Part shown: positions 38,908-60,000 of the stretch, piece after piece | Position numbering within the stretch: the stretch's first letter is position 1 | Layout: each line of letters starts with the position of its first letter | NCBI GenBank assembly: GCA_035651095.1 | Contig: DASRGI010000274.1 | Location: 1,489-65,488 of the forward strand | Source: Acidimicrobiales bacterium | GTDB lineage: Bacteria; Actinomycetota; Acidimicrobiia; Acidimicrobiales; JAUTXP01 | Reading direction: 5' to 3' | Length of the DNA stretch: 64,000 bases | Translations under genes and position numbers: made by a program | The notes under the pieces: model-generated | What the model saw: only the letters and a program-made list of their open reading frames with translations | Told to the model about the DNA's origin: nothing | Database searches by the model: none

Positions 38908-38918
38908 GTCTCAGGAGG

Positions 38919-38945
38919 GTTACGTTCTGTTTCCTTCGTGTGAAC
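38919..38945 (-). promoter_or_regulatory. Candidate GlnR-type box in the amtB/glnD divergent region
   Basis: The minus strand reads GTTCAC-ACGAAG-GAAAC-AGAAC-GTAAC. This resembles the actinobacterial GlnR a-site/b-site pattern gTnAc-n6-GaAAc. The second spacer is 5 nt instead of 6. Only one locus is available, so support is weak. Confidence 0.25.
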
Positions 38946-38954
38946 GGGCCACCC

Positions 38955-41350: not shown

Positions 41351-42523
41351 CTACTCGGCAGCGCAGGGGCCGGTGCTGACGGGCGTCGTGCGTTGCTCGG
41401 CGGGCGTCACCTCGCGGGCGACCTCGTCCGACGTCAGCGCGAACCCGATGTCGTCGTTGCGCACCGAGCGGGAGAACACCACGCCGGCCACCGACCCGTC
41501 CGGTCGCACCAGCGGTCCACCGGAGTTGCCCGGCCGGATGCGCGATTCCAGCTCGTACACCAGCCGGGTCGTCAGGCCCTGCCCGTAGATGTTGCGGCCC
41601 ACGGCGTCGATACGGGCCAGCACCACCGCGGGCTCGGCGTCGAAGGGCCCACCCCCCGGGTACCCGAGTACCGCGCCCGCCGTGCCCCGGTCCACGGCCC
41701 TGGGCTCGAGAGAGAGGGGCGGATCCGTCACCCCAGTGGCGCGGAGGACGGCCAGGTCGAGGTTGGGGTCGAACAGCACGGCGACGGCGGGGTGCGACCC
41801 CCGGCGGTCGAGCACGACGGGCCGGCGCACCCCGGCCACCACGTGGGCGTTGGTCACCACCACGTCGGGCGCCACCACGAAGCCCGAGCCCTCGAGGATG
41901 CCGCCGCACCCCGGGCCCATGATCTTCACCGTGGAGGCACCGGCCTTCTCCACCGCGGCCCGAACCACCGGGTCGGCTGGGAGGGGCAGCCGGGCGGCGG
42001 GGGCGGGCTCGAACTGGGCGAAGACCTGGGGCAGCCCGTGGGCATCGAGGATGCGCTGCACCCGCGAGAAGACGTCCGGCGCGGGCGGGAGGATGCGGTC
42101 CAGCGCCCGCAGGACGGCGGACCGCTGCACCTCTCCGGACAGGGGGCGGGCGGGCACGTTGGCGACCAGGCTGCCGATGAGCCACGCCGACAGCAGCGTG
42201 GCCGCCGACGCCACGACCGCCCCCAGGATGGCGTCGAAGGTGGCCAGGCGAGTGCGGCGCAGTCGCCCCCACATCCGCACACCGACCTGGCGCCCCAGCG
42301 TGCCGAAAATGGCGGCCAGACCGAACACGCTGACCAGCCCGAGCAGGGCCTTGGCGAAGGGGTCGTCGGCCAGGCGGGCGAGCACCGGCGCCAGCGCGGC
42401 GCCCACGAGCAGGCCCGCGGCCAAGCCCACGAAGGACAGGGCCTGGACGGCCGCGCCCAGCCAGAGGCCATGGAGCGCGGCCGCCACCACGGCCAGAAGG
42501 ATGACGATGTCGACGAGGTCCAC
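41351..42523 (-). CDS. MarP-like membrane serine protease (CvpA-type membrane domain plus trypsin-like domain)
   Basis: An N-terminal four-helix CvpA-like region, then VVTNAHVVAG (His), DLAVL (Asp) and PGNSGGPLV (Ser). This is the same architecture as mycobacterial MarP (Rv3671c). Confidence 0.8.
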   Translation of the reverse strand: MDLVDIVILLAVVAAALHGLWLGAAVQALSFVGLAAGLLVGAALAPVLARLADDPFAKALLGLVSVFGLAAIFGTLGRQVGVRMWGRLRRTRLATFDAILGAVVASAATLLSAWLIGSLVANVPARPLSGEVQRSAVLRALDRILPPAPDVFSRVQRILDAHGLPQVFAQFEPAPAARLPLPADPVVRAAVEKAGASTVKIMGPGCGGILEGSGFVVAPDVVVTNAHVVAGVRRPVVLDRRGSHPAVAVLFDPNLDLAVLRATGVTDPPLSLEPRAVDRGTAGAVLGYPGGGPFDAEPAVVLARIDAVGRNIYGQGLTTRLVYELESRIRPGNSGGPLVRPDGSVAGVVFSRSVRNDDIGFALTSDEVAREVTPAEQRTTPVSTGPCAAE

Positions 42524-42550
42524 GGGCCCTGGCGGGTCGGGGCCGGTCGG

Positions 42551-43003
42551 CTACCTGATCTCGATTCGCTTGGGCTTGTCGGCCGACGCCTTGGGGATCC
42601 GGACCTCGAGCACGCCATGCTCGAGTGACGCCTCGACTCCGGTGTCGTCCACGTCGGCGGGGAGCACGACCTCGAAGCGGAAGCGGCCGACGGCTCGGGT
42701 CTGGTGGCGCAAGATTCCCTTCCGCTCCTTCTCCGTGCGCTCGCCGGTGACAATCAGCCGGCGGCCCATGACCTCCAAGTCGATGTCATTCTTCTTCACG
42801 CCCGGCAGCTCGATGTCGACCACGAAGGCGTCGTCCGTCTCCTCGACGTCGGCCACGGGCATGAAGTCCGAGCCGATGGGGCCGCGCATCTGGGGCCAGT
42901 CCTGGAAGACCTGGGCCAGTTGCTGTTGCAGCTCGTCGAACGGGTCCCACCGGGCGACCTCAGCGGGACGGCGTTGCTGGCCTTGGTTGGCGGGGAGGGT
43001 CAT
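42551..43003 (-). CDS. Hsp20/alpha-crystallin family small heat-shock protein
   Basis: Alpha-crystallin domain FVVDIELPGVKKNDIDLEV...LIVTGER...F.F.V.LP..VD......A.L..GVL.V.IPK. Start taken at ATG 43003. Confidence 0.9.
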   Translation of the reverse strand: MTLPANQGQQRRPAEVARWDPFDELQQQLAQVFQDWPQMRGPIGSDFMPVADVEETDDAFVVDIELPGVKKNDIDLEVMGRRLIVTGERTEKERKGILRHQTRAVGRFRFEVVLPADVDDTGVEASLEHGVLEVRIPKASADKPKRIEIR

Positions 43004-43192
43004 GGTCCCTAGCATCCGACGGGCCGGGGCCGGCGCGCATCCCCCGAACGCGTGGTTCACCCGGCCCAGTGCGAGCGCCGGCGGCGCGGGCGCGCGTCCC
43101 TACGGGAACAGGCCGAGCGACAGGCCTATCCCGGCGATGATCATCACGACGCCAACAACAACCTTCCACCCGTCTTGACGGCTCGGTGCCGA

Positions 43193-43419: not shown

Positions 43420-45876
43420 GTGGGTGGAACGGGTACCGGCCTGGCCGGCGGCCCCACACGAGGCCGTACCGCCGAAGACCAGCTCTTGCGAGCACGCCTG
43501 CGGGCTGCGGCCCAGGGTCGAGGTGGGGTCGTGCTCCTGGAGGGCCCGGCCGGGATCGGCAAGAGCCGCCACCTGTCGGACGTGGTCACCCGAGCGGCCG
43601 AGACGGGCATGGCCGTGGCCGGGCCGGACGCCGTCGCCAGGGTGAACCAAGGGGCGGCCGGCGCGACAGCGATCACCGATGCCGAGTCGCCCCTCGTCAT
43701 CGTCCTCGACGACCTCCAGTGGGCCGACCCCGCCACCCTCCTCACCATCCAGCGCCTGACGTTGGAGTTGGTGTCCCATCCCCTGCTCTGGATCCTTGCC
43801 GGCCGGCGGGTCAGGGGCACACCCCTCGACCGGCTGCACTCTCTCTTGGAGGCAGCCGTCGGTGCGTCCCGCCTCCGCCTGGCGCCATTGGCGCCCGACG
43901 CCGTCACCGAGGTGATTGTCGACGTGCTCGGCGCCCGGCCCGACGCCGGTCTGCTCGCCCTGGCCGAGGGGGCGGGGGGCAACCCGCTGCTCGTCGTCGA
44001 GTTGGTGGAGGGCTTGCGGGACGAGGGCTCGGTCGTCGTCGAGCGCGGGGAGGCCCGGCTCCTGTCGGACCAGCTCCCTCGGCGAGTCGAGGCCTGCGTC
44101 TCCTACCGGCTGGGTGGCCTCTCCCCCGCGTCGCTCCACCTCTTGGAGGTGGCGGCCTTGCTCGGTCGGTCCTTCGCCGTCGAGGACCTGGCCGGGGTAC
44201 TGGACCAGCCCGTGGCCGACATCCTCATGCCGTTGCAGGAGCTGGTCGACGCCGGTGTGCTCGTGCCCGCATCGGGCGAGGCCATGGGGTTCCACCACGA
44301 CCTCGTCCGCCAGACGCTCTACCGGGCCATGCCCGAGCCCACTCGCAAGGCCCTGCACCGGGAGATCGGTGACCGGCTGTTGGCCCGTCACCCATCGGCG
44401 GCGCTGGCGGCCCCCCATCTGGTGCAGGGCGCCCGGCCCGGCGACCGCGACGCCCTCGCCGCTTTGGATCGGGCAGTGAACGAACTGGTGTCGACCGCGC
44501 CCGCGGCCGCCGCCGACATGGCCGTGCGGGCATTGCGCCTCACCGAGGCGAGCGACGACGCCCAAGTCGACCGGGTGGTCGCCGCCGTCAACGCACTGGT
44601 GGCCGCCGGGCGGGTGGCCGAGGCACTGGAGGTGGCCGGCCACGTTCCCGCCGGTGCCGATCCGCGCCTCGACGGGGCCGTGGCCTCGGTCATGCTCACC
44701 GACGGCCGCCTGGACGAGGCCCTGGCTTTGGCCCTGGCCGCCCACGCCGATGTCGTCCACGTGCTGACCCTGGTGGCCAAGGGCGACGCCCCCGCCGTGC
44801 GGGCCGCGGCCGAGCCCCTGCTGGCGGCCGGCGACGAGGCCTCGCTGGACGCCGGCCTCACCGCCATGGCCTGGCTGGCGTGGGACGAGGGGCGGGTGGC
44901 CGACGCCCTGGCCTTGGGGCGAGCGGCGGTGGCTCGTGACAACGACGGCAGCGCTCGAAGCCCGGCCCGACTGCTGCTGGCCGAAATGCTGACATCGGTG
45001 GACCAGTGGGCCGAGGCCGAGGCTCTGCTGGGGGCAGACGTCGAGCCCCCCTGGGCGCCTGGGTTGGCCCTGGGCCGCGCCCGCCTCCACCTGGCCGCCG
45101 GGCGATGGGACGAGGCCGCCACGGAGGCGGCTGCCGGATTGGCCCTGGCCGCCGAGTTGGCGGGTGGGCTGTTCATCGCTGGACTGCAAGCGGTGCTGGC
45201 TCACGAACCCGACCGCCACTCGCCCCACCATGCCGTGACCCTCGTGCGCTCGGCTCTGGCCGCCGGCGATCGGACGCAGGCCGCCGCCGTGGCCGCGCGG
45301 GCCGAGCAGCACGCGGCCATGAACCCCGAGTTCCCGTCGGTGGCGGCCGGCACCATGCACGCCCGGGGGTTGGCCGAGGCCGACGCCGACCTCCTCGCGC
45401 GCGCCGCCGGCCGGCATCGACGCCCGTGGCTGCGCGCGTCGGCATGGGAGGACGCCGGCAAGCTGTCGGGTCCGGAGCAACTCGAGCGGGCCCTCGCCGC
45501 GTACGAGAGCATGGGCGCCGAGCACGACGCAGCCCGGGTGCGGGCCCGCCTGCGGCGCATGGGTGTCCGCCGCCGCCATTGGGTCCGGGAGGATCGTCCC
45601 CTCACCGGGTGGAACAGCCTCACCGACACCGAGCGGCGGGTGGCCGCCCATGTGGCCGACGGCCTGACCAACGCCCAGGTGGCCGAGCACATGTTCCTGT
45701 CCCGCCACACGATCGACTTCCATTTGCGCCAGATCTTCCGGAAGCTGGCCATCAGCTCGCGGGTGGACCTGGCCCGGGTGGCGCTGGGAGAGCAAGGCAA
45801 GCAAGGCGACCAAGGCCAGACCACGCGGACGCGGGATGTGCCCGCTCCCCCATCGATGCGACCCTCGACGTGGTGA
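43420..45876 (+). CDS. LAL-type regulator (large ATP-binding LuxR family: AAA/NTPase domain, helical repeats, C-terminal LuxR HTH)
   Basis: GTG start at 43420. Walker A VLLEGPAGIGKS and Walker B-like LVIVLDDLQWAD. The long Ala/Leu-rich middle is TPR-like. C-terminal HTH: LTDTERRVAAHVADGLTNAQVAEHMFLSRHTIDFHLRQIFRKLAISSRVDL. Confidence 0.85.
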   Translation: MGGTGTGLAGGPTRGRTAEDQLLRARLRAAAQGRGGVVLLEGPAGIGKSRHLSDVVTRAAETGMAVAGPDAVARVNQGAAGATAITDAESPLVIVLDDLQWADPATLLTIQRLTLELVSHPLLWILAGRRVRGTPLDRLHSLLEAAVGASRLRLAPLAPDAVTEVIVDVLGARPDAGLLALAEGAGGNPLLVVELVEGLRDEGSVVVERGEARLLSDQLPRRVEACVSYRLGGLSPASLHLLEVAALLGRSFAVEDLAGVLDQPVADILMPLQELVDAGVLVPASGEAMGFHHDLVRQTLYRAMPEPTRKALHREIGDRLLARHPSAALAAPHLVQGARPGDRDALAALDRAVNELVSTAPAAAADMAVRALRLTEASDDAQVDRVVAAVNALVAAGRVAEALEVAGHVPAGADPRLDGAVASVMLTDGRLDEALALALAAHADVVHVLTLVAKGDAPAVRAAAEPLLAAGDEASLDAGLTAMAWLAWDEGRVADALALGRAAVARDNDGSARSPARLLLAEMLTSVDQWAEAEALLGADVEPPWAPGLALGRARLHLAAGRWDEAATEAAAGLALAAELAGGLFIAGLQAVLAHEPDRHSPHHAVTLVRSALAAGDRTQAAAVAARAEQHAAMNPEFPSVAAGTMHARGLAEADADLLARAAGRHRRPWLRASAWEDAGKLSGPEQLERALAAYESMGAEHDAARVRARLRRMGVRRRHWVREDRPLTGWNSLTDTERRVAAHVADGLTNAQVAEHMFLSRHTIDFHLRQIFRKLAISSRVDLARVALGEQGKQGDQGQTTRTRDVPAPPSMRPSTW

Positions 45877-46097
45877 CGTCATCCGACCGCGATCCCGAAC
45901 CTGACTGGCTGGCCGTGTGGGCCGATGTGCTCGCCCATCAGGAGCAGATGTCGGGACTGTTGCGACGGCTCGACCAGTTGCGAGCGGTGGCGGGCGACAG
46001 CGAGGGCGCGCTCCTCGAACAGTGCGCCCGCCAGTTGCGATCAGGCGAACACCGCCTCCAAGAACTGGCGGCGGTGTTCGGCAGCACCGCCGCGTAG
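45873..46097 (+). CDS. Candidate 74-aa ORF coupled to the LAL regulator, directly upstream of dnaK
   Basis: GTG 45873 overlaps the LAL stop as GTGA (45873-45876). The predicted product is helical (VTSSDRDPEPDWLAVWADVLAHQEQMSGLLRRLDQLRAVAG...). The ORF ends 33 nt before the dnaK ATG. GC3 is only moderate, so coding status is uncertain. Confidence 0.35.
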   Translation: MTSSDRDPEPDWLAVWADVLAHQEQMSGLLRRLDQLRAVAGDSEGALLEQCARQLRSGEHRLQELAAVFGSTAA

Positions 46098-46130
46098 GGC
46101 AGACGAGCAGACAAACGAGGGGGAAGCACC

Positions 46131-48025
<1,895 letters not shown>

Positions 48026-48026
<1 letters not shown>

Positions 48027-48514
48027 TGGCCGGCACGGGCGAGACCACCGAGGAGCCGGAGGTCGAGCCAACCGACGAGCTCGATCCCCTCGTGGCCGAA
48101 CTGGAGGACCGTCTTCGCCGGGCCCTGGCCGACCTCGACAACCTGCGCAAGCGCTTCGACCGCGAGGTGAACCGAGAGCGCGACGCCGAGCGCCGCCGCG
48201 TCGCCTCCGAGTGGTTGCCGGTCGTCGACAACCTCGAGCGCGCCATCCAGCACGCGGCCGCCGACCCCGATCTGTTGATGCGAGGGCTGGAAGCCGTGCA
48301 GGCACAGGCGGTGGCCGCCCTGGCCCGGCTCGGCTTCCCCCGCTTCGAGGACGTGGGCGAACGCTTCGACCCCGCCCGCCACGAGGCCGTGGGCGCGGTC
48401 GAGACCGACGAGGCCGATCCCGGGACGGTGGCTGCCGCCGCCCGGCCCGGCTACGGCACCCAGGAGGAGGTCCTCCGCCCCGCGTCCGTCGTGGTCACGA
48501 GGTCCCCTGACTGA
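48026..48514 (+). CDS. grpE: Nucleotide exchange factor GrpE
   Basis: ATG 48026 shares one base with the dnaK stop (TGATG). [18 protein letters not shown]...[10 protein letters not shown]...FDPARHEAV is the GrpE core. Confidence 0.9.
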
Positions 48515-49497
48515 TGGCGCCCCGCCGCGACTTCTACGAGTCCCTGGGCGTGAGTCGCGGCGCCTCGCAGGACGAGATCCAACGCGCCTACCGCAAGCTG
48601 GCCCGCACCTACCACCCGGACGTCAACAAGGACCCGGCTGCCGAGGAGCGGTTCAAGGAGGTGTCGGAGGCGTACGACGTGCTGTCCGACCCCGAGACCC
48701 GCCGCAAGTACGACGCCTTCGGGCCCGACTTCCGCCAGGTGCCCGACGGCGTCGACCCGGACACGTGGGCCCGAGCGCAGCAGGCCGGCGCACGCGGAGG
48801 CGCGGGCGGCGGGCCGAGGCCGCGCCGCGGCGCCCAGGGGCAGCAGGTGTGGTCGGCCGAGGACCTCGACATCGATCTGGACGACCTCTTCGGCGGCATG
48901 TTCGGGGGCATGGGTGGCGGGCGGGGCGGGCGGCGTGGGTGGGGCCCCATCGCCGGCGCCGACCAGGAAGCGGAGATCACCCTCACCGTGGAGGAGGCCT
49001 ACAACGGCGGCCGGCGCACCATCACGATCACCGGCCCCGACGGTCCCCGCGCCCTGGAGGTCGCCATCCCGCCCGGCGTCACCGACGGCCAGCGCATCCG
49101 CCTGGCCGGGCAGGGCGGCCAGGGCACCAGTGGCGCCGCCGCCGGCGACCTGTACCTCGTCGTCCGCCTGGCGCCCCACCCCCGCTACCGGGTGCAGGGC
49201 CGGGACATCTCCGTCGACCTGCCCCTCACGCCGTGGGAAGCGGCGCTGGGCGCGTCGGTGGCGATCATGACGCCAGGAGGCGAGGCCAAGGTGCGCGTGC
49301 CGGAAGGATCGTCGAGCGGCCGGCGCCTGCGCCTCAAGGGCAGGGGTCTGCCCAACCCCAAGGGATCGCCCGGCGACCTGTACACCGAGGTCCGCATCAT
49401 GGTGCCCAAGAAGCTGACGGACGAGGAGCGCCGGCTGTTCCAGGAGCTGGCCGCCGTCTCCACCTTCGACCCGAGGCGCGAGGGGCGGCAGCGATGA
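48514..49497 (+). CDS. cbpA: J-domain co-chaperone of the CbpA type (no zinc-finger domain)
   Basis: J domain [35 protein letters not shown], a G/F-like region and two DnaJ_C beta domains. No CxxCxGxG repeats are present anywhere in the 327 aa. ATG 48514 overlaps the grpE stop (TGATG). Confidence 0.9.
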
Positions 49498-49811
49498 CCA
49501 CCACGGTGTTGACCCGCCGCCGCCTGGTCGCCGTCGAACTCCTCCCCCTCGACACGTTCGCCCGCCGCACCGGCTTGCATCCCGATCTGGTTCGCCGTCT
49601 CGTCGCCCTGGGTCTGCTCGAGGCGACATCGGACGCGGCGGGCGAGCTGTGGTTCCCCCCCACCCAGCTCCCCGCCGCGGCCCGCCTCCAGAGACTGCGT
49701 GCCGGGCTGGCCCTCAACTGGGCGGCCACCGGCCTGGTGGCCGACCTGCTCGACCGGATCTCGGCGCTCGAAGCAGCCCTCCGAAGCAGAGGAGACACAC
49801 CGTGGACATGA
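49494..49811 (+). CDS. cbpM: CbpM-like chaperone modulator (MerR_2-type HTH)
   Basis: ATGA overlap with the cbpA stop. [27 protein letters not shown]...[32 protein letters not shown] parallels E. coli CbpM (...[28 protein letters not shown]...) as I recall it. Confidence 0.65.
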
Positions 49812-52447
49812 ACCGGCTCACCCAGAAGTCCCAGGAGGCACTGCACGACGCCCAGACCAAGGCCATGCGCTTCGGGCACACCGAGGTCGATGGCGAGCAC
49901 CTGCTGCTCGCCCTCCTCGAACAGCCCGAGGGGCTGGTGCCCCGGCTGCTGGTGGCGGCCGACGCCGACCCCGACGCCATCAGGGCCGAGGTCGAAGCCG
50001 AGCTGGAACGCCGGCCCCGCACGTCGGGGCCGGGCGCGTCGCCCGGCCAGGTGTTCGTCACGCAACGGCTGAGCCGCTTGCTGGACAAGGCCGAACAGGA
50101 GGCCAAGCGGCTGAAGGACGAGTACGTCTCCGTCGAGCACCTGGTGATCGCCTTGCTGGACGAGGGCTCGGGCACCGCCGCCGGCCGCATCTTCTCGCAG
50201 CACGGCATCAGCCGCGACCGCTTCCTCCAAGCGCTCACGTCGGTGCGGGGCAACCAGCGGGTCACCTCGGCCATGCCCGAGGTGGCGTACGAAGCGTTGG
50301 AGAAGTACGGGCGCGACCTGGTGGCCGAGGCCCGCGGCGGCCGCATGGACCCCGTCATCGGGCGGGACGGGGAGATCCGCCGCGTCATCCAGATCCTCTC
50401 CCGCAAGACCAAGAACAACCCCGTCCTCATCGGCGACCCGGGCGTGGGCAAGACGGCCATCGTGGAAGGGCTGGCCCAGCGCATCATGCGGGGCGACGTG
50501 CCCGAGGGCCTGCGCAACCGGACGGTCTTCGCCCTGGACATGGGCTCGCTCGTCGCCGGGGCCAAATACCGGGGTGAGTTCGAGGAGCGACTGAAGGCGG
50601 TGCTCACCGAGGTGAAGGCGGCCGAGGGCCGCATCATCCTGTTCGTCGACGAGATGCACACGGTGGTGGGCGCCGGCGCGGCCGAGGGGGCCATGGACGC
50701 GGGCAACATGCTCAAGCCCATGCTGGCCCGGGGCGAGCTGCACATGATCGGCGCCACCACGGTCGACGAGTACCGCAAGCACGTGGAGAAGGACGCCGCG
50801 CTCGAGCGGCGCTTCCAGCCGGTGATGGTGGACGAGCCCTCGGAGGAGGACGCCATCTCCATCCTGCGGGGCCTGCGCGAGCGCCTGGAGGTGTTCCACG
50901 GCGTGAAGATCCAAGACGCCGCCCTGGTGGCTGCCGTGGTGCTCAGCCACCGCTACATCTCCGATCGTTTCCTGCCCGACAAGGCCATCGACCTCGTGGA
51001 CGAGGCCTGCGCCATGCTGCGCACCGAGATCGACTCCATGCCCGCCGAGCTGGACGAGCTCACCCGCCGGGTCACCCGGCTGGAGATCGAGGAGGCGGCC
51101 CTCTCCAAGGAGAAGGACGACGCCAGCAAGCAGCGGCTGGAGGAGCTGCGCAAGGAGCTGGCCGACCTGAAGGCCGAGGCCGATGCCATGCGGGTGCAGT
51201 GGGAGGCCGAGCGCCAGGTGCTCAAGCGGGTGCAGTCGCTGCGCGAGGAGATCGAGCGGGTGCGCCAAGAGGCGGACGAAGCCGAGCGTGCCTACGACCT
51301 GAACAAGGCGGCCGAGCTCCGCCACGGCCAACTGCCCGAGCTGGAGCGCCGGCTGCAGGCGGAGGAGGAACAGCTCGCCTCCAAGTTCGGGGCCCACCGC
51401 CTCCTGCGCGAAGTGGTGACCGAGGATGAGGTGGCGTCCATCGTGTCCCGCTGGACGGGAATCCCCGTGAGCAGGTTGAAGGAGGGCGAGCGGGAGAAGC
51501 TCCTGCGCCTGGATGAGCTCCTGCACGAGCGCGTGGTCGGTCAGCACGAGGCCGTGCAACTGGTGGCCGACGCCATCATCCGGGCCCGCTCGGGCATCAA
51601 GGACCCACGCCGGCCCATCGGCTCGTTCGTCTTCCTCGGCCCCACCGGCGTGGGTAAGACCGAGCTGGCCCGGGCCCTGGCCGAGGCCCTGTTCGACACC
51701 GACGAGAACATGGTGCGCATCGACATGAGCGAGTACCAGGAGCGCCACACGGTGAGCCGCCTGGTGGGTGCTCCCCCCGGGTACGTCGGGTACGAGGAGG
51801 GCGGCCAGCTCACCGAGGCGGTACGGCGCAAGCCGTACTCGGTGGTGCTCTTCGACGAGATCGAAAAGGCCCACCCCGACGTGTTCAACACCCTGTTGCA
51901 GGTGCTGGACGACGGCCGCCTGACGGACGGGCAGGGGCGCACCGTCGACTTCCGGAACACGGTCGTGATCATGACGTCGAACATCGGGTCCGACTACCTG
52001 CTCGAGGGCGTGACGCCCGACGGCGAGATCAAGCCCGACGCCCGCGGCCTGGTGATGGCCGAGCTGCGCCGCCACTTCCGGCCCGAGTTCCTCAACCGGG
52101 TGGACGACATCGTGCTGTTCAAGCCCCTCACCCAGCAGGAGATCGAGCGCATCGTCGACCTCATGTTCAACGACCTGCGGTCCCGGTTGGCCGATCGGCG
52201 CATGACCCTCGAGCTCACGGAGGAGGCGCGCCGCTACATCGCCCGCCAGGGCTTCGACCCCGTGTACGGCGCCCGTCCCCTGCGGCGCTTCATCTCCCAT
52301 GAGGTGGAGACCCGGATCGGCCGGGCTCTGCTGAGCGGTGAGGCCAAGGACGGTGCCGTCATCCGCGTCGACGCAGTCGAGGGCGACCTCGTCATCACCG
52401 TCGACAACCCGACCAACAACAACGAGAGGCAGGAGGCCTTCGCATGA
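49808..52447 (+). CDS. clpB: ATP-dependent disaggregase ClpB
   Basis: ATGA overlap with the cbpM-like stop. Clp_N repeats, two AAA modules ([32 protein letters not shown]) and a long middle coiled coil ([27 protein letters not shown]...). Confidence 0.95.
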
Positions 52448-53019
52448 TCGTGTTGATGGATTGGCGCGCCGCGGCGGTGCGGGGCGGCGCCGCCCTGCTC
52501 TTCGGCTTCCTCGCCTTGGTGTGGCCGGGACTCACTCTCACCGCCCTGGTCCTGCTGTACGGCGCCTTCGTGGTCGTGCACGGCGTGTCGACCCTGGCCG
52601 AGGTTCTGACCCACGCCCCGGGCACGGCCGGCCGGCGGGGGCCGCTGGCCTTCGGGGGCATCGTCAGCGTGGCCGCCGGCATCGTCACGTTCCTGTGGCC
52701 GGGCATCACCGCCCTGGTGCTGCTCTACATCATCGCCGCATGGGCGGTGGTGACCGGGGCCATGGAGATCGCCGCCGCCATCGAGCTGCGCCGAGTGCTC
52801 CGGCGGGAGTGGCTGCTGGTGCTGGGCGGCGTGCTGTCCATCGCCTTCGGCATCGTGCTGGTCGCGGCGCCGGGCACGGGCGCCCTCGCCGTCACCTGGC
52901 TCATCGGTTGGTACTCGGTTGCCTACGGCGCTCTTCTGGTGGCCCTCGCCGTCCGGCTGCGGCGGTGGCAGCTCCAGGCCCGGCGCCAAGGGCAAACGGC
53001 CCGGCCCGTGTCGGCATGA
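52444..53019 (+). CDS. HdeD/DUF308 family membrane protein
   Basis: ATGA overlap with the clpB stop. Six hydrophobic helices with the DUF308 repeat pattern ([41 protein letters not shown]). Confidence 0.8.
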
Positions 53020-53885
53020 GCACGCCGTCCCTGCCCGGGCCGCCCGAAGCCATCGAGGTCATCCTCGTCCCTCTCGACGGGTCGCCCCTCTCCGAGCTGG
53101 CGTTGCCGGTGGCGTCCAGCCTGGCCCGTCGCTTCGACGCCGGCGTCCATCTGCTCAGCGCCGTGCCCACGGCCGACGACGTCGCCGAGCGCGAGGCCCA
53201 ACTGAGCAAGCTCGAACTGTCGGCCAAGTTCGTGGAGCGCGAGGTGGTCATCAACCTCGACCCCGCGGGAGCCGTTCACGACCGGCTGGTGCACATGCAG
53301 AAGGCGGTGATCTGCATGGCCACGCGGGGGCGGGGCCGCAGCGCGGCCATCTTCGGCTCGGTGGCCGATGACGTCATCTTCCGGTGCCGCGATGCGCTGG
53401 TGCTGGCCGGGCGCATGTTGGACCCCCGGCTGCCGGGCACGGGCGTGATCCTCTGCGTGGACGAGACGCCGGCGTCCGCCGCCCTGCTCCCCATCGCCTG
53501 GCGCTGGTCCGAGCTGCTGCACGAGCCGCTCACCGTCATGACCGTGGCCGAGCCCGTGCCCGAGCCCTTCCAGTCCGGGACCATCCACCGCCGCTTCGGG
53601 CCCGACGGCGACGTGGACGGGTACCTGTCCGATCTGGTGCGGGCCCTGCGCGCCGAGGGCAAGGAGGTGCAGACCAAGGCGATCTACGACCCCATCAGCC
53701 CGGCCGAGGGCATCCTCGCCTACCTCGACGCCCACCCCCCCTACCTGGTCGTCGCCGGTACCCACGCCCGCACCGGCCTGGCCCGTTTGGCCCTGGGCAG
53801 CACGGCCGCGGCCGTCGTGCACAGCAGCCCGGCCCCGGTACTCGCCATCCCCCGACCTGACATCCAGCGAAAGCGGGATCGATGA
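53016..53885 (+). CDS. Tandem universal stress protein (two UspA domains)
   Basis: ATGA overlap with the upstream stop. Two Usp-like halves (ILVPLDGSPLSELALPVA...ICMATRGRG..GSVADDV and ILCVDETPASAALLP...LVVAGTHARTGLARLALGSTAAAVVHSSPAPVLAI). Confidence 0.8.
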   Translation: MSTPSLPGPPEAIEVILVPLDGSPLSELALPVASSLARRFDAGVHLLSAVPTADDVAEREAQLSKLELSAKFVEREVVINLDPAGAVHDRLVHMQKAVICMATRGRGRSAAIFGSVADDVIFRCRDALVLAGRMLDPRLPGTGVILCVDETPASAALLPIAWRWSELLHEPLTVMTVAEPVPEPFQSGTIHRRFGPDGDVDGYLSDLVRALRAEGKEVQTKAIYDPISPAEGILAYLDAHPPYLVVAGTHARTGLARLALGSTAAAVVHSSPAPVLAIPRPDIQRKRDR

Positions 53886-54760
53886 ACATCGCCAACCTCA
53901 TCTGGCTGTTCTTCCTGCTGTCCAGCATCCAACCGGTCGTCGCCCAACGCGTGCTCCTCGTGCAGCGGGCCCGGGCCATACGGGAGCTGGAGAAGCGCAA
54001 CCACTCGCGCGCCATCACCATGATCCACCGGCGTGAGGGGTTCGCCTTCCTGGGCATCCCCTTCGGTGGCTTCATCGACATCGAGGACTCGGAGGCCATC
54101 ATCCGGGCCATCGAGCTCACGGCCGACAACATCCCGATCGACCTGATCCTGCACACGCCGGGCGGGTTGGTGCTCGCCGCCGAGCAGATCGCCTCGGCCC
54201 TGGCCGACCATCCGGCCAAGGTCACCGTCTACGTGCCCCACTACGCCATGAGCGGGGGCACGCTGATCGCCATGGCCGCCGACCAGATCGTGATGGCGCC
54301 GTCGGCCGTGCTCGGTCCCGTCGACCCGCAGCTGGGCGAGTGGCCGGCGGCGTCCATCCTGGCCGCGGTGGCCCAGAAGGACCCCAACCGGGTGCACGAC
54401 AAGACGCTCATCTACGCCGACATGGGCCGCAAGGCCCAGCAGCAGGTGGAGGAGTTCGTGACCAACCTGCTGGAGAAGCGCCTGCCCCACGAGCAGGCCA
54501 AGGACGTGGCCCACACCATGTCCGAAGGCCGCTGGACCCACGACTTCCCCATCCAGGTGGAGCACGCCCGGTCGCTGGGCCTCCCCGTCAGCACCGACCT
54601 ACCCGACGAGGTGCGCCTGCTCATGCGCCTGTACCCGCAGCCCCGCGGCCGGCGGCCATCGGTGGAGTACATCCCCGGGCCCTACAACACCCCGGCGCCG
54701 CCACCGCCGGCCCGATCGCCTCGGCGGGCACCGAGCACGAACGGGGCAGGCAAGGCATGA
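53882..54760 (+). CDS. SDH-family (serine dehydrogenase proteinase / ClpP-fold, SppA-related) membrane-anchored serine protease
   Basis: ATGA overlap with the usp stop. An N-terminal hydrophobic anchor, then LILHTPGGLVLAAEQIA...YAMSGGTLIAMAADQIVM, typical of the ClpP/crotonase-fold SDH_sah family. Confidence 0.7.
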   Translation: MNIANLIWLFFLLSSIQPVVAQRVLLVQRARAIRELEKRNHSRAITMIHRREGFAFLGIPFGGFIDIEDSEAIIRAIELTADNIPIDLILHTPGGLVLAAEQIASALADHPAKVTVYVPHYAMSGGTLIAMAADQIVMAPSAVLGPVDPQLGEWPAASILAAVAQKDPNRVHDKTLIYADMGRKAQQQVEEFVTNLLEKRLPHEQAKDVAHTMSEGRWTHDFPIQVEHARSLGLPVSTDLPDEVRLLMRLYPQPRGRRPSVEYIPGPYNTPAPPPPARSPRRAPSTNGAGKA

Positions 54761-55209
54761 CCGCCCAGGCCAAGGTCGTCGTGTGCGAGCAATGCGGGAC
54801 CAAGAACCGGGTCCCACCGGCGGCCGAGGGCGTACCGAGGTGCGGGCGGTGCCACAACCCGCTGCCATGGATGGTGGACGCCGGCGACGACGACTTCGCC
54901 ACTGTGGCCGAGGCGGCGTCCATCCCCGTGCTGGTGGACCTCTGGGCGCCGTGGTGCGGGCCGTGCCGGATGGTGAGCCCGGCCCTGGAGCAACTGGCCA
55001 AGTCGTTCGCGGGCCGGCTCAAGCTGGTCAAGATCAACGTGGACGAGGCCCAGCACGTGGCCGGGCGCTTCGGCGTCCAGGGCATCCCGACCCTGCTGCT
55101 GCTCCGGGGTGGGGAGGTGGCGGCCCGCCAGGTGGGCGCCGCCCCCGAGCACGCCTTGCGGGCCTGGCTCGAGCAGTCGCTCGGCAGCGCCCCCGCCGCC
55201 AACCCTTGA
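54757..55209 (+). CDS. trxC: Thioredoxin 2-type thioredoxin with N-terminal zinc finger
   Basis: ATGA overlap with the upstream stop. CEQCGTKNRV...CGRCHNPL (two CxxC pairs), then the active site WAPWCGPC. Confidence 0.9.
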   Translation: MTAQAKVVVCEQCGTKNRVPPAAEGVPRCGRCHNPLPWMVDAGDDDFATVAEAASIPVLVDLWAPWCGPCRMVSPALEQLAKSFAGRLKLVKINVDEAQHVAGRFGVQGIPTLLLLRGGEVAARQVGAAPEHALRAWLEQSLGSAPAANP

Positions 55210-55230: not shown

Positions 55231-55638
55231 TCAGCCCAAGCGCACCGCGTCGGCCTGGCACACGGCCTCGATGGTAGTGAGCAGTTGCGACCAGGCGGTG
55301 GCCTTGTCCAGGTAAGCGTCCGCCCCGCGCTCCACCACTTCGAGCAGGGTGTACGGGTCCGGGAACGCCGAGAACACCACGATGCGCGCCTTGGGCGCCG
55401 CCTCCCGCAGGCGAGGCAGGGCGGTGATGCCGTCGATGCCGGGCAGGTGCAGGTCGAGCACGATCACGTCCGGCTGCGTCCGCTCGACGACGGCCACACC
55501 CGCGTGGCCGTCACCCGCCTGACCCACGAGGCGGAAGCGGGAGTCAACGTCCAGCATCACCTCGATCAACGTTCGCAGCTCGGCATCGTCGTCGATCACG
55601 ACAACTCGATGCACCACCGGGTCCGCACCGTCTTTCAT
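55231..55638 (-). CDS. Stand-alone receiver-domain response regulator (CheY-like)
   Basis: ATG 55638 is preceded by GGAGG. VVVIDDDAELR, DVIVLDLHLPGIDG, IVVFSA and ADAYLDK. There is no output domain (135 aa). Confidence 0.85.
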   Translation of the reverse strand: MKDGADPVVHRVVVIDDDAELRTLIEVMLDVDSRFRLVGQAGDGHAGVAVVERTQPDVIVLDLHLPGIDGITALPRLREAAPKARIVVFSAFPDPYTLLEVVERGADAYLDKATAWSQLLTTIEAVCQADAVRLG

Positions 55639-55695
55639 GTCGGCCTCCGGGAAGAAGTCGTACGTACTGCTATCGGCACCAGGGGGCCTCGCCTG

Positions 55696-55711
55696 TAGCC
55701 CGATCGGGCTA
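55696..55711. promoter_or_regulatory. Perfect 16-nt palindrome TAGCCCGATCGGGCTA (terminator-like hairpin or operator)
   Basis: It lies 1 nt downstream of the SixA-like stop (55713) and 58-73 nt upstream of the receiver gene ATG (55638). Confidence 0.4.
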
Positions 55712-55712
55712 G

Positions 55713-56153
55713 TCAGGCCGGCGGCGGGAGGTAGACGCACGGGCCCCGGGGGTTGAGCACCCACGTTGATCCCTTGGCGCAGCGGGGCCGGGACGGGATG
55801 GGCCATCCCACGTGGCGCAGGCCGGCCAGCACCACGTCGATCACGTCGCCATGGGTACAGACCGCGACGTCGCCCACCGCATCGAGCACGAGGTCGAGGG
55901 CGTGGTGACCCCTCCCCTCCCGGAGCGCGCCGGCTGTCTCCACCTTGAGGGACCGGGCTTCGGCCAGCGGCGTCACCGTCGCCACGCACCGCACGGCCGG
56001 GCTGGAGAGGATGCGATCGGCGGGGTACGGCGAGAGCAGCTCGACCAGGCCGGCCGCCTGCTGCTCCCCCCGCCGCGTGAGCGGGCGCAGGTTGTCGTCG
56101 CCGGGCCAGGACTTGCGCGACACCGCCACCGCGTGGCGGACCAGCAGGATCAC
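55713..56153 (-). CDS. Histidine phosphatase superfamily protein (SixA-like)
   Basis: GTG 56153 overlaps the ppk stop as GTGA. Catalytic RH motif ILLVRHAVA and second His in VCTHGDVI. About 146 aa, the size of SixA-type phosphohistidine phosphatases. Confidence 0.7.
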   Translation of the reverse strand: MILLVRHAVAVSRKSWPGDDNLRPLTRRGEQQAAGLVELLSPYPADRILSSPAVRCVATVTPLAEARSLKVETAGALREGRGHHALDLVLDAVGDVAVCTHGDVIDVVLAGLRHVGWPIPSRPRCAKGSTWVLNPRGPCVYLPPPA

Positions 56154-58279
56154 GCCAGCTCGTCGTCGAGGACCAGGGCCTCGACGTCGGAGGCCCGCCG
56201 GGGACGGGCGCCCACGTGGCCCCGGGCCACGGCCAACTCGTGCAACCGCCGCTGGGCGGCGACGGGCTCGGCGCCCGCGCCGGTGCCGGCGGCCGGCTGG
56301 ACCCGCTGCCACCGGCCGTCGCCGTCCAGCTCCCACGCCTGCGTGTTGTCGGCCAGGGACACATCGAGGATCTCGTCCAGGCGTCCCTGGAGCTCTCGCC
56401 CCTCCACGAACACCATGGCCTCCACGCGCGAGTGCAGGTTGCGGGGCATGAGGTCGGCCGAGCCGATGAGATAGCGCGTGCCCGGCTCACCCGGCGTGCC
56501 GAAGCGAAGGATGCGCGAGTGCTCCAGGTACCGGCCCACGATCGAGCGCACCCGGATCGTGTCGGAGATGCCGGGGACCCCCGGGCGCAGGCAGCAGATG
56601 CCCCGCACGATGAGGTCGATGCCGGCCCCCGCCTGCGAGGCCGCGTACAGGGCGTCGATGACGGCAGGGTCGGCCAGGCTGTTGACCTTGAGGGTGATGC
56701 GGCCGCCCGGGTGCGCCTGCCCGGCGATGAGGTCGACCACCTGGCCGGACAGCGTGTCGGGTGCCAGCACCAGCCGGTCGTAGGTGACGTTGCGGCTGTA
56801 GCCGGTGAGGAAGTTGAACAGCTCGCTCAGGTCGGCGCCCAGCACGGGGTCGGCCGACAGGAGCCCGATGTCCTCGTACAGCCGGGCTGTCTCCGGGTTG
56901 TAGTTGCCGGTCCCGATGTGCGAGTACCGGCGCACCACCTCGTCCTCCAGGCGGGCCACCAGCGCCACCTTGGCATGGGTCTTGAGGCCGACCAGCCCGT
57001 ACACCACGTGCACGCCGGCGTCCTCCATGGCCCGGGCCCATGCGATGTTGGCCTCCTCGTCGAAGCGGGCCTTGAGCTCGACGATGGCGACCACCTGCTT
57101 GTTGGCCTGGGCCGCCCGGATGAGGGCCTTCACGATGGGACTGTCGCCCGACGTGCGGTACAGCGTCATCTTGATGGCGAGGACGTTGCGATCGCTTGCC
57201 GCCTGTTTGATGAACGATTCGACCGAACTGTTGAACGATTCGTACGGGTGGTGCACGAGGATGTCGCCCTCCTGCAGCGCTCCGAAGATGTCGCCTTCGG
57301 CCGCGGCCAGGTGGCGCTCGGTGACCGACGGCCAGGGGTCGTCCTTCAGGTCGGGGCGGGCCAGCGCGTGCACGGCCCACAGCCCGGTCAGGTCGAGGGG
57401 CCCGTCGATCACGTAGACGTCCTCGGGCTCCAGCTCCAGTTCGGCCAGCAGGAGGCTCAGGATCTCGTCGGACATCGTGGCGTCGACCTCGAGGCGCACG
57501 CCCCGGCCCCGGCGCCGGCGGCGCAACTCCAACTCCACGGCGGCGAGGAGGTCGTCGGCTTCCTGGTCGCCCCCCGTGAGGTCGGCGTTGCGGGTGACCC
57601 GGAAGGGGAAGTGGCACTCCACCTCCATGCCCGGGAAGAGCAACTGGATGTGGGCGGCGATCACCTGCTCCAGGGGCACGAAGCGTTCGCCGTCGGGGAG
57701 GACGACGAAACGGGGCAGCAGCGCGGGCACCTTCACGCGGGCGAAGCGGCGCTCGCCCGTGGCTGCGTCCCGCACCATGACGGCCAGGTTCAGGGACAGG
57801 TCGGAGATGTGCGGAAACGGGTGCCCGGGGTCGACCGACAGCGGCGTGAGGACGGGGAACACCTTCTCGTCGAAGACCGTCTCGAGGAACTTGCGGTCGT
57901 CATCGTCGAGCGACGTCCACGCCGACATGCGGATGCCGGCCCGGGCCAGGGCGGGCACGATCTCCTGCGTGAACAGCGCGGTCTCGCGGTCGACCAGGTC
58001 GAGGACCACCGTGCGCAACTCGGCCAGTTGCTCCACGGCCGACATGCCGCCCACGCCGATCTGGGGCACGCCCGCGGCCACCTGGTCCTTGAGGCCGGCC
58101 ACGCGCACGCGGAAGAACTCGTCCAGGTTCTGGCTGAAGATGGCGAGGAACTTGCACCGCTCCAGCAGCGGGACCGACTCGTCCTCGGCCAGAGCCAGCA
58201 CCCGGGCGTTGAACGCCAGCCACGACAGCTCGCGGTCGAGGTACGGACCGACGCCGGCCACGTGGACGGCGGTGGTCAC
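56150..58279 (-). CDS. ppk: Polyphosphate kinase 1
   Basis: YLDRELSWLAFNARVLALAED..PLLERCKFLAIFSQNLDEFF, the autophosphorylated His region (HHPYESF) and tandem PLD-like HKD-type motifs (HAKVALV, HSRIL). The start is taken at GTG 58279, 4 nt after the ROK gene stop. Confidence 0.92.
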   Translation of the reverse strand: MTTAVHVAGVGPYLDRELSWLAFNARVLALAEDESVPLLERCKFLAIFSQNLDEFFRVRVAGLKDQVAAGVPQIGVGGMSAVEQLAELRTVVLDLVDRETALFTQEIVPALARAGIRMSAWTSLDDDDRKFLETVFDEKVFPVLTPLSVDPGHPFPHISDLSLNLAVMVRDAATGERRFARVKVPALLPRFVVLPDGERFVPLEQVIAAHIQLLFPGMEVECHFPFRVTRNADLTGGDQEADDLLAAVELELRRRRRGRGVRLEVDATMSDEILSLLLAELELEPEDVYVIDGPLDLTGLWAVHALARPDLKDDPWPSVTERHLAAAEGDIFGALQEGDILVHHPYESFNSSVESFIKQAASDRNVLAIKMTLYRTSGDSPIVKALIRAAQANKQVVAIVELKARFDEEANIAWARAMEDAGVHVVYGLVGLKTHAKVALVARLEDEVVRRYSHIGTGNYNPETARLYEDIGLLSADPVLGADLSELFNFLTGYSRNVTYDRLVLAPDTLSGQVVDLIAGQAHPGGRITLKVNSLADPAVIDALYAASQAGAGIDLIVRGICCLRPGVPGISDTIRVRSIVGRYLEHSRILRFGTPGEPGTRYLIGSADLMPRNLHSRVEAMVFVEGRELQGRLDEILDVSLADNTQAWELDGDGRWQRVQPAAGTGAGAEPVAAQRRLHELAVARGHVGARPRRASDVEALVLDDELA

Positions 58280-58283
58280 TGCG

Positions 58284-59255
58284 TCACGACCGGCCCGCCA
58301 AGTCGGCCGCCAGCAGGGCGGCGCCGATGGCGCCCCCGCGATCGCCCAGTGCCGTCGGCACCACGCGCACCGGGTTGTCTCGATAGACGCGGCTGCGCCC
58401 CGCCTGCTCCACCCGTCCGACGAAGGCAGGACCGAGCCGGTCGGCGAGTCCCCCACCCAGCACCACCATGGGCACGTCCAAGAGCGTAACGGCGCTGGCG
58501 ATGGCGATGCCCAACGTCGTGACGGCGTCGTCCAACAGTTCGACGGCGAGCACGTCACCGGCGGCCAGCGCCTTGGCGAACACGCTCGACGTCATGCGCC
58601 GGGCCGGCGCCAGGTCGACGAGCATCGTGTCGCGACCGCGGGACTCGAGGGTCCGAGCCCGGCGCTCCATGGACGCCCGGCCGGCGTAGACCTCCAGGTG
58701 GCCACGCCCGCCGCAGCGGCACACCCGGCCGTCCGGGCGCACGATCACATGGCCGATCTCGGCGGCCAGCCCGGACGGCCCTCGGCGCAACTCGTTGCCG
58801 AGGATGAGCCCGCCCCCCACGCCCGTGCCCACGAACACGCCCAGGACGTCGGGCACGCCCTGGGCCACGCCCCGGCGGTGCTCGGCCAGGGTGCCCACGT
58901 TCACGTCGTTGTCGACCATGACCGCCCGGCCGTCGAGGGCGTCGGACAGCGCCGCGCCCAGGTCGAAGGGCCCCACCCACCCTGACAGGTTGGGGGCGAA
59001 GCGCACCGTACTGGCGTCGGCGTCGACGTTGCCGGGCACACCGATACCCACCAGGTTGGCCCGCTTGGGTGCACCCAACCCGTCCACCACCTTGCGGACG
59101 GCGTCCACCACGGCCAACGGACCGCCCTGCACGGGCGTCTTGCCCTTGGCCTCGGCGATGACGTCGTTGCCCTCGAGGAGGACGGCGTAGATCTTGGTCG
59201 CGCCCAGGTCGATGCCAATCAGCGATCGCGGGGGCACGGCCCCGCAGTTCAGCAC
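58284..59255 (-). CDS. ROK family sugar kinase (glucokinase-like)
   Basis: IGIDLGATKI, DNDVNVGTLAE and the ROK zinc motif GHVIV...RVCRCGGRGHLE. Confidence 0.85.
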   Translation of the reverse strand: MLNCGAVPPRSLIGIDLGATKIYAVLLEGNDVIAEAKGKTPVQGGPLAVVDAVRKVVDGLGAPKRANLVGIGVPGNVDADASTVRFAPNLSGWVGPFDLGAALSDALDGRAVMVDNDVNVGTLAEHRRGVAQGVPDVLGVFVGTGVGGGLILGNELRRGPSGLAAEIGHVIVRPDGRVCRCGGRGHLEVYAGRASMERRARTLESRGRDTMLVDLAPARRMTSSVFAKALAAGDVLAVELLDDAVTTLGIAIASAVTLLDVPMVVLGGGLADRLGPAFVGRVEQAGRSRVYRDNPVRVVPTALGDRGGAIGAALLAADLAGRS

Positions 59256-59309
59256 GCGCGGGTGAGCGTGCGCTGTCCTGGGGGTGAATTCGGGGTGAAC
59301 TCGGCGGGA

Positions 59310-59942
59310 TCAGCCCAGGCGGAGGCGCTGGGTGACGTTCACGGCGTGGTCGCCCAACCGCTCGAAGAAGCGAGCGGCCAGAGCCATCTGGATGGCGACG
59401 GGGACGGAGACCCTGGCCGACGCCAACTCGGCCGTGAGGCTCACGTGCAGGTCGTCGATCTCGTCGTCGATGGCGCGGAGACGGTTGCCGGCCTTGGTGT
59501 CCCTGGCCATGTAGGCGTCGGCGGCCATGCCCCACATCTCCACGCCCACCGCGCCCATCTGGGCCACCAGGTCACGGCCCCGCGGCGTCAGCCAGGCGCC
59601 CAGGTTCTGTGCGGCCAGGGCGGCGATGTGGGTGGCCAGGTCGCCACTGCGTTCCAACTCCGGCGCGATGCGCACGATCATGAGCAGGTTGCGGGCCTCG
59701 GCCTCGCCCGGGCCGCCCGGTTGGGTGAGCCCGCGCAGGGCCAGGTCCTCGATGCGGGCGTGGAGCTCGTCCATGGCCTCGTCCTCGGCCGCCACCCGGC
59801 GGGCCGCCTCGCGGTTCCCGGTGAGGAAGGCGTCGGTGGCACCACCCAACGCCTCGCGCACGAGGGTGAAGGCACCGACGACCAGGCTGTCCAACTCGGC
59901 CAGGTCGACGGGCGAAACCGAGTGGAGCGTCATCCCGGCCAA
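59310..59942 (-). CDS. phoU: PhoU-domain phosphate signalling protein
   Basis: Two PhoU repeats carrying E..D...D-type motifs (AAEDEAMDELH..., AIDDEIDDLH...) and FFERLGDHAVNV. Confidence 0.85.
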   Translation of the reverse strand: MAGMTLHSVSPVDLAELDSLVVGAFTLVREALGGATDAFLTGNREAARRVAAEDEAMDELHARIEDLALRGLTQPGGPGEAEARNLLMIVRIAPELERSGDLATHIAALAAQNLGAWLTPRGRDLVAQMGAVGVEMWGMAADAYMARDTKAGNRLRAIDDEIDDLHVSLTAELASARVSVPVAIQMALAARFFERLGDHAVNVTQRLRLG

Positions 59943-60000
59943 CGTACGGCCGGTGTTCGCTCAGGGGAAGTGAACTCTTGGCGAACAAGCCCGCCGCGGC

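Follow-up and report, generated by a model that had tools for sequence, protein, structure and literature searches.

Described systems that join dnaK to clpB

A dnaK operon joined to clpB is already known, both as the arrangement of Thermus and as a common second chaperone set of Actinomycetota that is often borne on plasmids or islands. Here we describe such a locus in a 64,000-nt stretch of DNA from an Acidimicrobiales bacterium (contig DASRGI010000274.1; GC content, ~71%), referred to below as the window. Nine genes on one strand make up the locus (46131-55209; 9.1 kb): dnaK, grpE, a gene for a CbpA-like J-domain protein (cbpA), a gene for a CbpM/DafA-like protein (cbpM), clpB, hdeD, a universal stress protein gene (usp), a gene for an SDH-family protease (SDH), and the thioredoxin gene trx2. 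A gene for a LAL-type regulator (LAL) precedes them. We consider it likely that the locus is a copy of a widespread chaperone module to which three extra stress genes have been added and that dnaK to trx2 form one translationally coupled operon. As judged from the comparisons below, the core order of the module is dnaK, grpE, class-B J-protein, CbpM/DafA-like modulator, clpB, and thioredoxin. What is new in the window is the extra cargo, hdeD-usp-SDH, together with an overlap at every junction of a dnaK-clpB module.

In Thermus, a complex of DnaK, DnaJ, and DafA has been described (PMC3727329). The Thermus thermophilus locus (AP025158.1, 389583-403819; L166 in our set) consists of dnaK, grpE, dnaJ (class B), dafA, and clpB, with ftsH upstream on the opposite strand. 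After clpB, and in the same direction, follow genes for a rubrerythrin-like protein, baeRF, Hsp20, a metallophosphoesterase, a thioredoxin, a second Hsp20, DUF1931, and PsiE. From dnaK to clpB, the five genes of the window match those of this biochemically studied Thermus system one by one on a single strand; both loci have a class-B J-protein and a DafA homologue encoded before clpB. However, the Thermus junctions are looser (+53, +3, -14, and +150 nt, the last separating clpB from dafA), and the Thermus thioredoxin gene lies four genes downstream of clpB, whereas trx2 in the window is joined to the overlap chain. The Thermus row also lacks hdeD, usp, the SDH protease gene, and the LAL regulator gene, and its DafA has 78 amino acids (aa), compared with 105 aa for the protein in the window. 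The Thermus genes from dnaK to clpB are reportedly transcribed as one operon, a result attributed to Motohashi et al. in 1999.

Among Actinomycetota, the “heat shock island” of Propionibacterium freudenreichii encodes an 18-kDa Hsp, DnaK, GrpE, CbpM, and ClpB and is unique to two strains (PMC5644110). Streptomyces avermitilis has a second operon, dnaK2-grpE2-dnaJ2 (PMC5402319), which may belong with the same actinobacterial island, the comparison extending as far as dnaJ2 only. We found no experimental characterization of this island as a unit in the literature searched. Like the window, the accessory island encodes Hsp18/20, DnaK, GrpE, a J-protein, CbpM, ClpB, and usually a thioredoxin; the gene order agrees, and the junctions are comparably tight. 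Downstream, its copies usually have genes for a zf-UBP protein, a cNMP-binding thioredoxin reductase, FUSC, and PsiE; control is by a PucR-type regulator that is encoded divergently. The window differs from them in having LAL upstream, in having hdeD-usp-SDH before trx, and in having no thioredoxin reductase gene.

The tLST/LHR (transmissible locus of stress tolerance/locus of heat resistance) of beta- and gammaproteobacteria encodes a small Hsp, ClpK/G, HdeD, a thioredoxin, a PsiE-like protein, and proteases and is horizontally spread (PMC8290217). Like the window, it is a co-directional block that joins a small Hsp, an Hsp100 disaggregase, an HdeD-family protein (PF03729), a thioredoxin (PF00085), and proteases. 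Unlike the window, which has a canonical ClpB with its own DnaK system, it has a stand-alone ClpK or ClpG and no DnaK, GrpE, or J-protein. YfdX1/2, KefB, PsiE-like, HtpX-like, and DegP proteins were all absent from the scanned window genes; PsiE was seen only in the Streptomyces and Thermus loci. Membership of the window in the tLST/LHR family was ruled out, given that the window ClpB scores 776 bits with the ClpK model and 747 bits with the ClpG model, both far under the cutoff of 1900, and that a DnaK system is present. Since the tLST has a stand-alone disaggregase and no DnaK system, we regard it as a functional analogue that belongs to another family. The Thermus locus has genes for FtsH and an S49/NfeD peptidase upstream, and its set of families recalls the actinobacterial island as well as the tLST of proteobacteria.

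Like the window, the canonical actinobacterial operon dnaK-grpE-dnaJ-hspR starts with dnaK, grpE, and a J-protein gene and encodes a MerR-fold protein in fourth place; in the window, by contrast, clpB and further genes are joined downstream. We rejected identity with the HspR/HAIR dnaK operon because the locus encodes a class-B and not a class-A J-protein, has a MerR_2/CbpM-like protein in place of HspR as the fourth-gene product, and shows no HAIR-like site near dnaK. In Escherichia coli, the gene for CbpM lies downstream of cbpA, and CbpM blocks the J-domain of CbpA (PMC8215388). The E. coli pair resembles the window in that a gene for a class-B J-protein is followed at once by one for a CbpM-family modulator. 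It differs in that it stands alone, unlinked to dnaK, grpE, and clpB.

The core module and its cargo in other genomes

A profile of 16 CbpM-like proteins from island loci matched E. coli CbpM (3UCS; 5e-13) and Thermus DafA (9DVI chain S; 7e-9). Thermus DafA has the PF13591 domain and bears the NCBI name CbpM. We concluded that the fourth-gene protein is, by profile comparison, a homologue of both E. coli CbpM and Thermus DafA. The same profile matches >4000 database proteins, many of which go by the name CbpM in Streptomyces. The C-terminal residues PWT and the stop codon that follows them (window positions 49799-49811) are kept in CbpM-like proteins of distant taxa, as seen in the 3′ ends of cbpM from L003 to L048. 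We attribute this conservation to the overlap of these codons with the start region of clpB (CCGTGGACATGA); the dual-coding cbpM/clpB junction is kept across classes. The J-protein encoded before cbpM lacks the CXXCXGXG zinc finger, which places it in class B, and its domain set equals that of the Thermus DnaJ.

We then scanned genomes with the window ClpB, taking one genome per species, and 80 loci were returned. In every actinobacterial locus with a ClpB at least 76% identical, a cbpM-like gene lay directly upstream of clpB. The order dnaK-grpE-cbpA-cbpM-clpB was present in all of those with enough flanking sequence (16 of 16), from Acidimicrobiales, Streptomyces, Nonomuraea, Acrocarpospora, Herbidospora, Frankia, Blastococcus, Arthrobacter/Paenarthrobacter, and Solirubrobacterales. 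A thioredoxin gene directly followed clpB in 12 related loci. Two Streptomyces plasmids (NZ_CP108713 and NZ_CP104318) carry the block, annotated as dnaK, GrpE, J-domain protein, CbpM, clpB, and trxA. ClpB identity reached 79-85% across classes (Acidimicrobiia versus Streptomyces, Nonomuraea, and Herbidospora). The junctions in relatives were tight as well: nearly always -4 nt at cbpA/cbpM, mostly -4 or -10 nt at cbpM/clpB, mostly -8 to +7 nt at grpE/cbpA, mostly +1 to +9 nt at dnaK/grpE, and mostly -8 to +5 nt at clpB/trx, with one locus (L007) having 165 nt at this last position.

The surroundings of the core in relatives are a mosaic of genes for Hsp20, YflT, zf-UBP, cNMP-binding thioredoxin reductase, FUSC, and PsiE. 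Hsp20 genes adjoin the dnaK block in L003, L005, L007, L009, L013, L015, and L016. The window itself has the gene content of the island, namely, dnaK-grpE-cbpA-cbpM-clpB, a trx gene further downstream, and an Hsp20 gene close by, with three inserted genes parting trx from clpB. The first-pass annotation of this DNA was aware of no described equivalent of the locus. The lack of an equivalent did not survive the comparison, since the core recurs in the Thermus locus, in the 16 related actinobacterial loci, on the two Streptomyces plasmids, and in the P. freudenreichii island (PMC5644110). The same annotation had named conservation of order and junctions in relatives as a check; the core order and tight junctions are indeed kept, whereas the hdeD-usp-SDH block is variable.

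Outside Actinomycetota, two loci from Clostridia/Syntrophomonadaceae had dnaK-cbpA-cbpM-clpB, and several from Planctomycetota, Verrucomicrobiota, and Firmicutes had cbpA-clpB. One metagenome-assembled genome (MAG) of Chthoniobacter (Verrucomicrobiota; L037, 10001-19613) carries on one strand clpB, then grpE-cbpA, and genes for an SDH protease, a thioredoxin, HdeD, and Hsp20. This gene set suggests that similar families have been combined independently in another phylum.

The three cargo genes are specific to the lineage of the window, where they lie between clpB and trx with overlaps at every junction. The full nine-gene order, dnaK through hdeD-usp-SDH-trx2, was found only in identical contigs, and in most related loci hdeD-usp-SDH is not placed between clpB and trx. 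An Acidimicrobiales MAG (L005), the only other locus with hdeD downstream of clpB, shows the order clpB-hdeD-usp-trx, in which the genes are 10-52 nt apart. A second locus (L088), with an SDH protease 70% identical to that of the window, has the order usp-SDH-trx, in which the ATGA overlap of usp and SDH is retained and SDH and trx are 6 nt apart. The closest homologues of the SDH protease (73-77% identical) are encoded by stand-alone genes in unrelated contexts. When metagenomes were scanned with this protease, the contexts were mostly unrelated, and besides L088 no further copies of the chain surfaced. Because the cargo is variable in relatives and the closest SDH homologues stand alone, we read it as an apparent lineage-specific insertion into the ancestral clpB/trx junction, with overlaps re-made at each new junction. 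The clpB/trx junction would then be a site of cargo gene addition and re-coupling.

In 4 of 80 SDH-protease loci, all on metagenome contigs (L110, L122, L135, and L136; positions ~7330-10810), the protease gene is immediately preceded, in the same orientation, by one for a full-length ClpB-like ATPase (45-49% identical). These pairs hint that disaggregases and SDH proteases have come together repeatedly beyond the lineage of the window.

Junctions, spacer, and predicted transcript

The first-pass annotation had described eleven open reading frames (ORFs), LAL, a short ORF (sORF), and the nine genes from dnaK to trx2, as one chain. All of its coordinates and junction motifs were present as quoted, and all 11 frames are open on translation (Table 1). 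LAL and the sORF have GTGA in common, and a 33-nt gap separates the sORF from dnaK. From dnaK to trx2, start and stop codons overlap at every one of the eight junctions (-1, -4, or -10 nt). TGATG (-1) occurs at dnaK/grpE and grpE/cbpA, and ATGA (-4) occurs at cbpA/cbpM, cbpM/clpB, clpB/hdeD, hdeD/usp, usp/SDH, and SDH/trx2. Gene calls on a metagenome contig 99.99% identical to the window gave the same starts and boundaries, with the sole exception of clpB, for which GTG at 49802 was called (-10 overlap). This GTG is the likely start of clpB, being favored by the metagenome caller, by PGAP in relatives, and by better spacing from the Shine-Dalgarno (SD) sequence; the ATG at 49808 (-4), which the first-pass annotation had used, is the alternative.

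Table 1. Features of the locus, with strand, free energy of the predicted SD duplex, and basis of assignment
Feature	Position	Strand	SD duplex dG (kcal/mol)	Basis and remarks
Hsp20 small heat-shock protein	42551..43060	-		Pfam HSP20, 75.5 bits; divergent from LAL; island associate, outside the overlap chain
LAL-type regulator	43420..45876	+	strong SD at 43420	Pfam AAA_16 (STAND ATPase), TPR_19, GerE (LuxR/GerE helix-turn-helix)
sORF, 74 aa	45873..46097	+	+0.3	doubtful; no family, no SD
Inverted repeat	46046..46080	.		15-nt arms, 5-nt loop: CGAACACCGCCTCCA agaac TGGCGGCGGTGTTCG; 50 nt before dnaK ATG
dnaK (Hsp70)	46131..48026	+	-10.7	NF001413, 955 bits; Pfam HSP70
grpE	48026..48514	+	+0.4	Pfam GrpE, 117 bits; start overlaps dnaK stop by 1 nt; no SD
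cbpA, class-B J-domain protein, CbpA-like/Thermus DnaJ-like	48514..49497	+	-6.6	Pfam DnaJ and DnaJ_C only; curved DNA-binding protein model, 236 bits
cbpM, CbpM/DafA-like MerR_2 protein, 105 aa	49494..49811	+	-7.4	PF13591, 47 bits; putative J-protein/DnaK modulator
clpB disaggregase	49802..52447	+	-9.0	TIGR03346 equivalog, 1347 bits (cutoff 1232); DnaK-dependent type
hdeD, DUF308/HdeD-like integral membrane protein	52444..53019	+	-10.3	PF03729, 3 repeats
usp, tandem universal stress protein	53016..53885	+	-2.7	Pfam Usp, 2 stretches; no SD
SDH, SDH-family ClpP-fold serine protease	53882..54760	+	-5.0	NF047768, 398 bits; PF01972, 377 bits; N-terminal hydrophobic segment
trx2, Trx2-type thioredoxin, last gene	54757..55209	+	-7.0	Pfam Thioredoxin PF00085; N-terminal CxxC-x17-CxxC zinc-finger motif; WCGPC active site

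To gauge the background, we trained a codon-likelihood gene caller on the region and counted junctions in the rest of the window; -4 or -1 overlaps occurred at ~6 of 31 co-directional junctions (~19%), versus 8 of 8 in dnaK-trx2. In addition, although only 3.7% of the codons of the chain genes have A at position 3, it is the final base of the last sense codon in six of nine genes, where it makes ATGA (P ~2e-7). From the excess over background and the excess of last codons ending in A, we concluded that the overlaps from dnaK to trx2 are nonrandom. There is no intergenic DNA in this interval, and a conventional promoter or terminator would not fit between the genes. The codon-likelihood caller predicted no gene on the opposite strand of the block, and a terminator scan gave no plus-strand terminator-like site between dnaK and trx2, with a terminator count equal to the shuffled expectation. 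An Rfam scan of 42.5-56.5 kb yielded nothing beyond a sub-threshold SorX match.

The SD duplex energies differ widely along the chain, and grpE and usp were scored as having no SD. At eight junctions a start overlaps or abuts the upstream stop, and in grpE and usp this is combined with the lack of an SD in the downstream gene, which is the pattern looked for in termination-reinitiation; coupling itself is predicted. We infer that co-transcription with translational coupling is the most economical reading of the block, because it has no intergenic DNA and no plus-strand terminator-like site and because grpE and usp lack an SD. Since some of its nine genes are without an SD, the chain would also offer a clean natural setting in which to study how termination-reinitiation couples genes in a high-GC bacterium.

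The sORF does not share the properties of its neighbors. It has no family match in Pfam or NCBIfam and no SD and was not called by the codon-likelihood caller; its GC content at third codon positions is 0.80, compared with 0.84-0.95 for the other ten genes. A protein-database search found a single homologue, 91% identical, from a 1.1-kb contig (L165) whose DNA is 94.5% identical. Relative to this contig, substitutions at the three codon positions are distributed 2:5:7 in the sORF, a noncoding pattern, and 2:0:35 in dnaK. In the 16 related loci for which sequence ahead of dnaK was available, no homologue of the sORF was found there; more distant relatives have at this position an Hsp20 gene, a gene for a YflT-type general stress protein, or other nonhomologous sequence. 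The sORF is thus probably not protein coding and belongs to the spacer between LAL and dnaK. With the sORF discounted, LAL and dnaK are separated by 254 nt (45877-46130), which we take to be regulatory.

The chain proposed in the first-pass annotation hence holds for the nine genes from dnaK to trx2 and is not supported for LAL and the sORF, the latter having neither a family, an SD, coding-type substitutions, nor a homologue in the 16 related loci. The annotation had gone further and proposed an undescribed eleven-gene super-operon, running from LAL through the sORF to trx2, with obligatory co-expression and possibly a fixed stoichiometry. It is true that the junction motifs exist, that the overlap chain is statistically unusual, and that the exact nine-gene order occurs only in the lineage of the window. 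However, the link through the sORF is unsupported, the core is widespread and present both in Thermus and in the literature, and the distal cargo is variable among relatives. Nor do overlaps imply a fixed stoichiometry, and SD energies that span +0.4 to -10.7 kcal/mol along the chain, a difference of >10 kcal/mol, speak against one. We therefore regard the eleven-gene super-operon as very unlikely.

Within the spacer, an 83-nt segment (46001-46083) that takes in the 3′ end of the sORF and the inverted repeat has no substitutions relative to L165, whereas third positions of dnaK differ by ~14%; the 33-nt spacer immediately before dnaK is strongly diverged. Constraint on this segment appears to act at the nucleotide level. 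The inverted repeat has no second copy in the window, and its hairpin z-score is only -1.8; it is a candidate operator, LAL terminator, or hairpin of the 5′-untranslated region. HspR/HAIR-type control of dnaK was rejected, as no HAIR-like match (up to 4 mismatches allowed) was found near dnaK and no CIRCE-like match was found. LAL is probably its own transcription unit and encodes a candidate activator. Its homologues (31-35% identity) were found upstream of dnaK only in L007 and L009 among the related loci, and 10 other loci had a PucR-type regulator. At the C terminus of LAL there is a 9-nt tandem repeat (GCAAGGCAA; QGK type; window positions 45790-45830), with an 18-nt length difference from L165.

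These elements suggest the following mechanism. The genes from dnaK to trx2 would be carried on one mRNA made from a promoter in the 254-nt spacer that bears the conserved inverted repeat, possibly under the control of the LAL-type regulator. Translation would be coupled through termination-reinitiation at the -1, -4, and -10 overlaps, and grpE and usp would probably depend on this coupling. The strong SDs of dnaK, clpB, and hdeD would make the output of the operon nonequimolar. From what is known of the families, the encoded proteins would form a self-contained set for protein repair: DnaK, GrpE, and the J-protein would resolve aggregates together with their cognate ClpB, with the CbpM/DafA-like protein as a modulator, and Trx2 would repair oxidized thiols. 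The cargo genes may add envelope or membrane functions and degradative functions.

Several observations weigh against this account. Two sigma-70-like matches lie within coding sequence, at 47632 (dnaK) and 54075 (SDH), versus 0.2 expected, so that promoters internal to coding sequence may exist; the consensus suits high-GC actinobacteria poorly. The role given to LAL rests on adjacency in only three loci. More distant relatives showed no such inverted repeat ahead of dnaK, and no regulator is tied to it. As to the origin of the locus, the window shows no signs of recent mobility, that is, no tRNA, transposase, or island-flanking direct repeats and a GC content like that of the surroundings, and the flanks are ordinary chromosomal genes, amt-glnB-glnD upstream and ppk-ROK-phoU downstream.

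The promoter-like matches in dnaK and SDH would suit an arrangement of several transcription units with internal promoters or processing sites, for example, before clpB or before hdeD-usp-SDH-trx, in which the overlaps reflect high-GC compaction only. The -4/-1 overlaps found elsewhere in the window and the strong SDs that hdeD and clpB have of their own agree with such an arrangement, as do the separable subunits of relatives, where clpB lies 150 nt from dafA (Thermus) or trx lies 165 nt from clpB (L007). However, compaction at the background rate of ~19% contrasts with overlaps at 8 of 8 junctions, two genes in the chain have no SD, no plus-strand terminator-like structure interrupts it, and the core order and tight junctions are kept across classes. 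We consider several units unlikely and favor the single coupled dnaK-trx2 operon.

Inheritance of the locus and neighboring genes

With no mobility signs and with chromosomal flanks, the locus could be the sole, housekeeping dnaK operon of its host, as in Thermus, vertically inherited rather than acquired horizontally as an accessory island. Its setting among chromosomal housekeeping genes, with no mobility genes, tRNA, or compositional shift, fits such an origin, and so do the presence of the core in two other Acidimicrobiales MAGs (L005 and L007) and the use of the same arrangement by Thermus. In contrast, ClpB is 79-85% identical across classes, the block is found on Streptomyces plasmids and is strain specific in P. 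freudenreichii, and the flanking genes differ from locus to locus. On balance, we consider a purely housekeeping operon somewhat unlikely.

ClpB works only with a matching DnaK, a specificity that involves the ClpB M-domain. The two would thus be expected to move together, which would explain both the conserved linkage and the distribution on plasmids and islands. In keeping with this partner specificity, the DnaK-dependent disaggregase is accompanied by a DnaK, a GrpE, a J-protein, and a modulator of its own. Because the disaggregase travels with its own DnaK system, the block is a candidate transferable determinant of stress tolerance, comparable to the tLST. In its strongest form, this idea would make the block a horizontally mobile, self-sufficient proteostasis island of Thermus-related ancestry, a Gram-positive, DnaK-dependent counterpart of the tLST that accretes cargo at clpB/trx and re-creates ATGA there. 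We offer this form as a speculation and think it rather unlikely as a whole. If it were true, the window would represent the most extended and fully coupled form seen so far, and the block could confer transferable tolerance of heat or oxidants.

On the upstream side, the window carries amt, the P-II gene (glnB), and glnD (36925-41264), followed by genes for a CvpA-trypsin protease and Hsp20. On the downstream side, a convergent response-regulator gene ends 21 nt beyond trx2. It belongs to a phosphate/polyphosphate cluster (55231-63016) that comprises genes for the response regulator, a histidine phosphatase, polyphosphate kinase, ROK, PhoU, SurE, and a phosphoesterase. The CvpA-trypsin protein is a trypsin-like membrane serine protease with a CvpA portion, and its gene and the Hsp20 gene (41351-43060, minus strand) lie divergently upstream of LAL. 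Both genes may be part of the same stress neighborhood.

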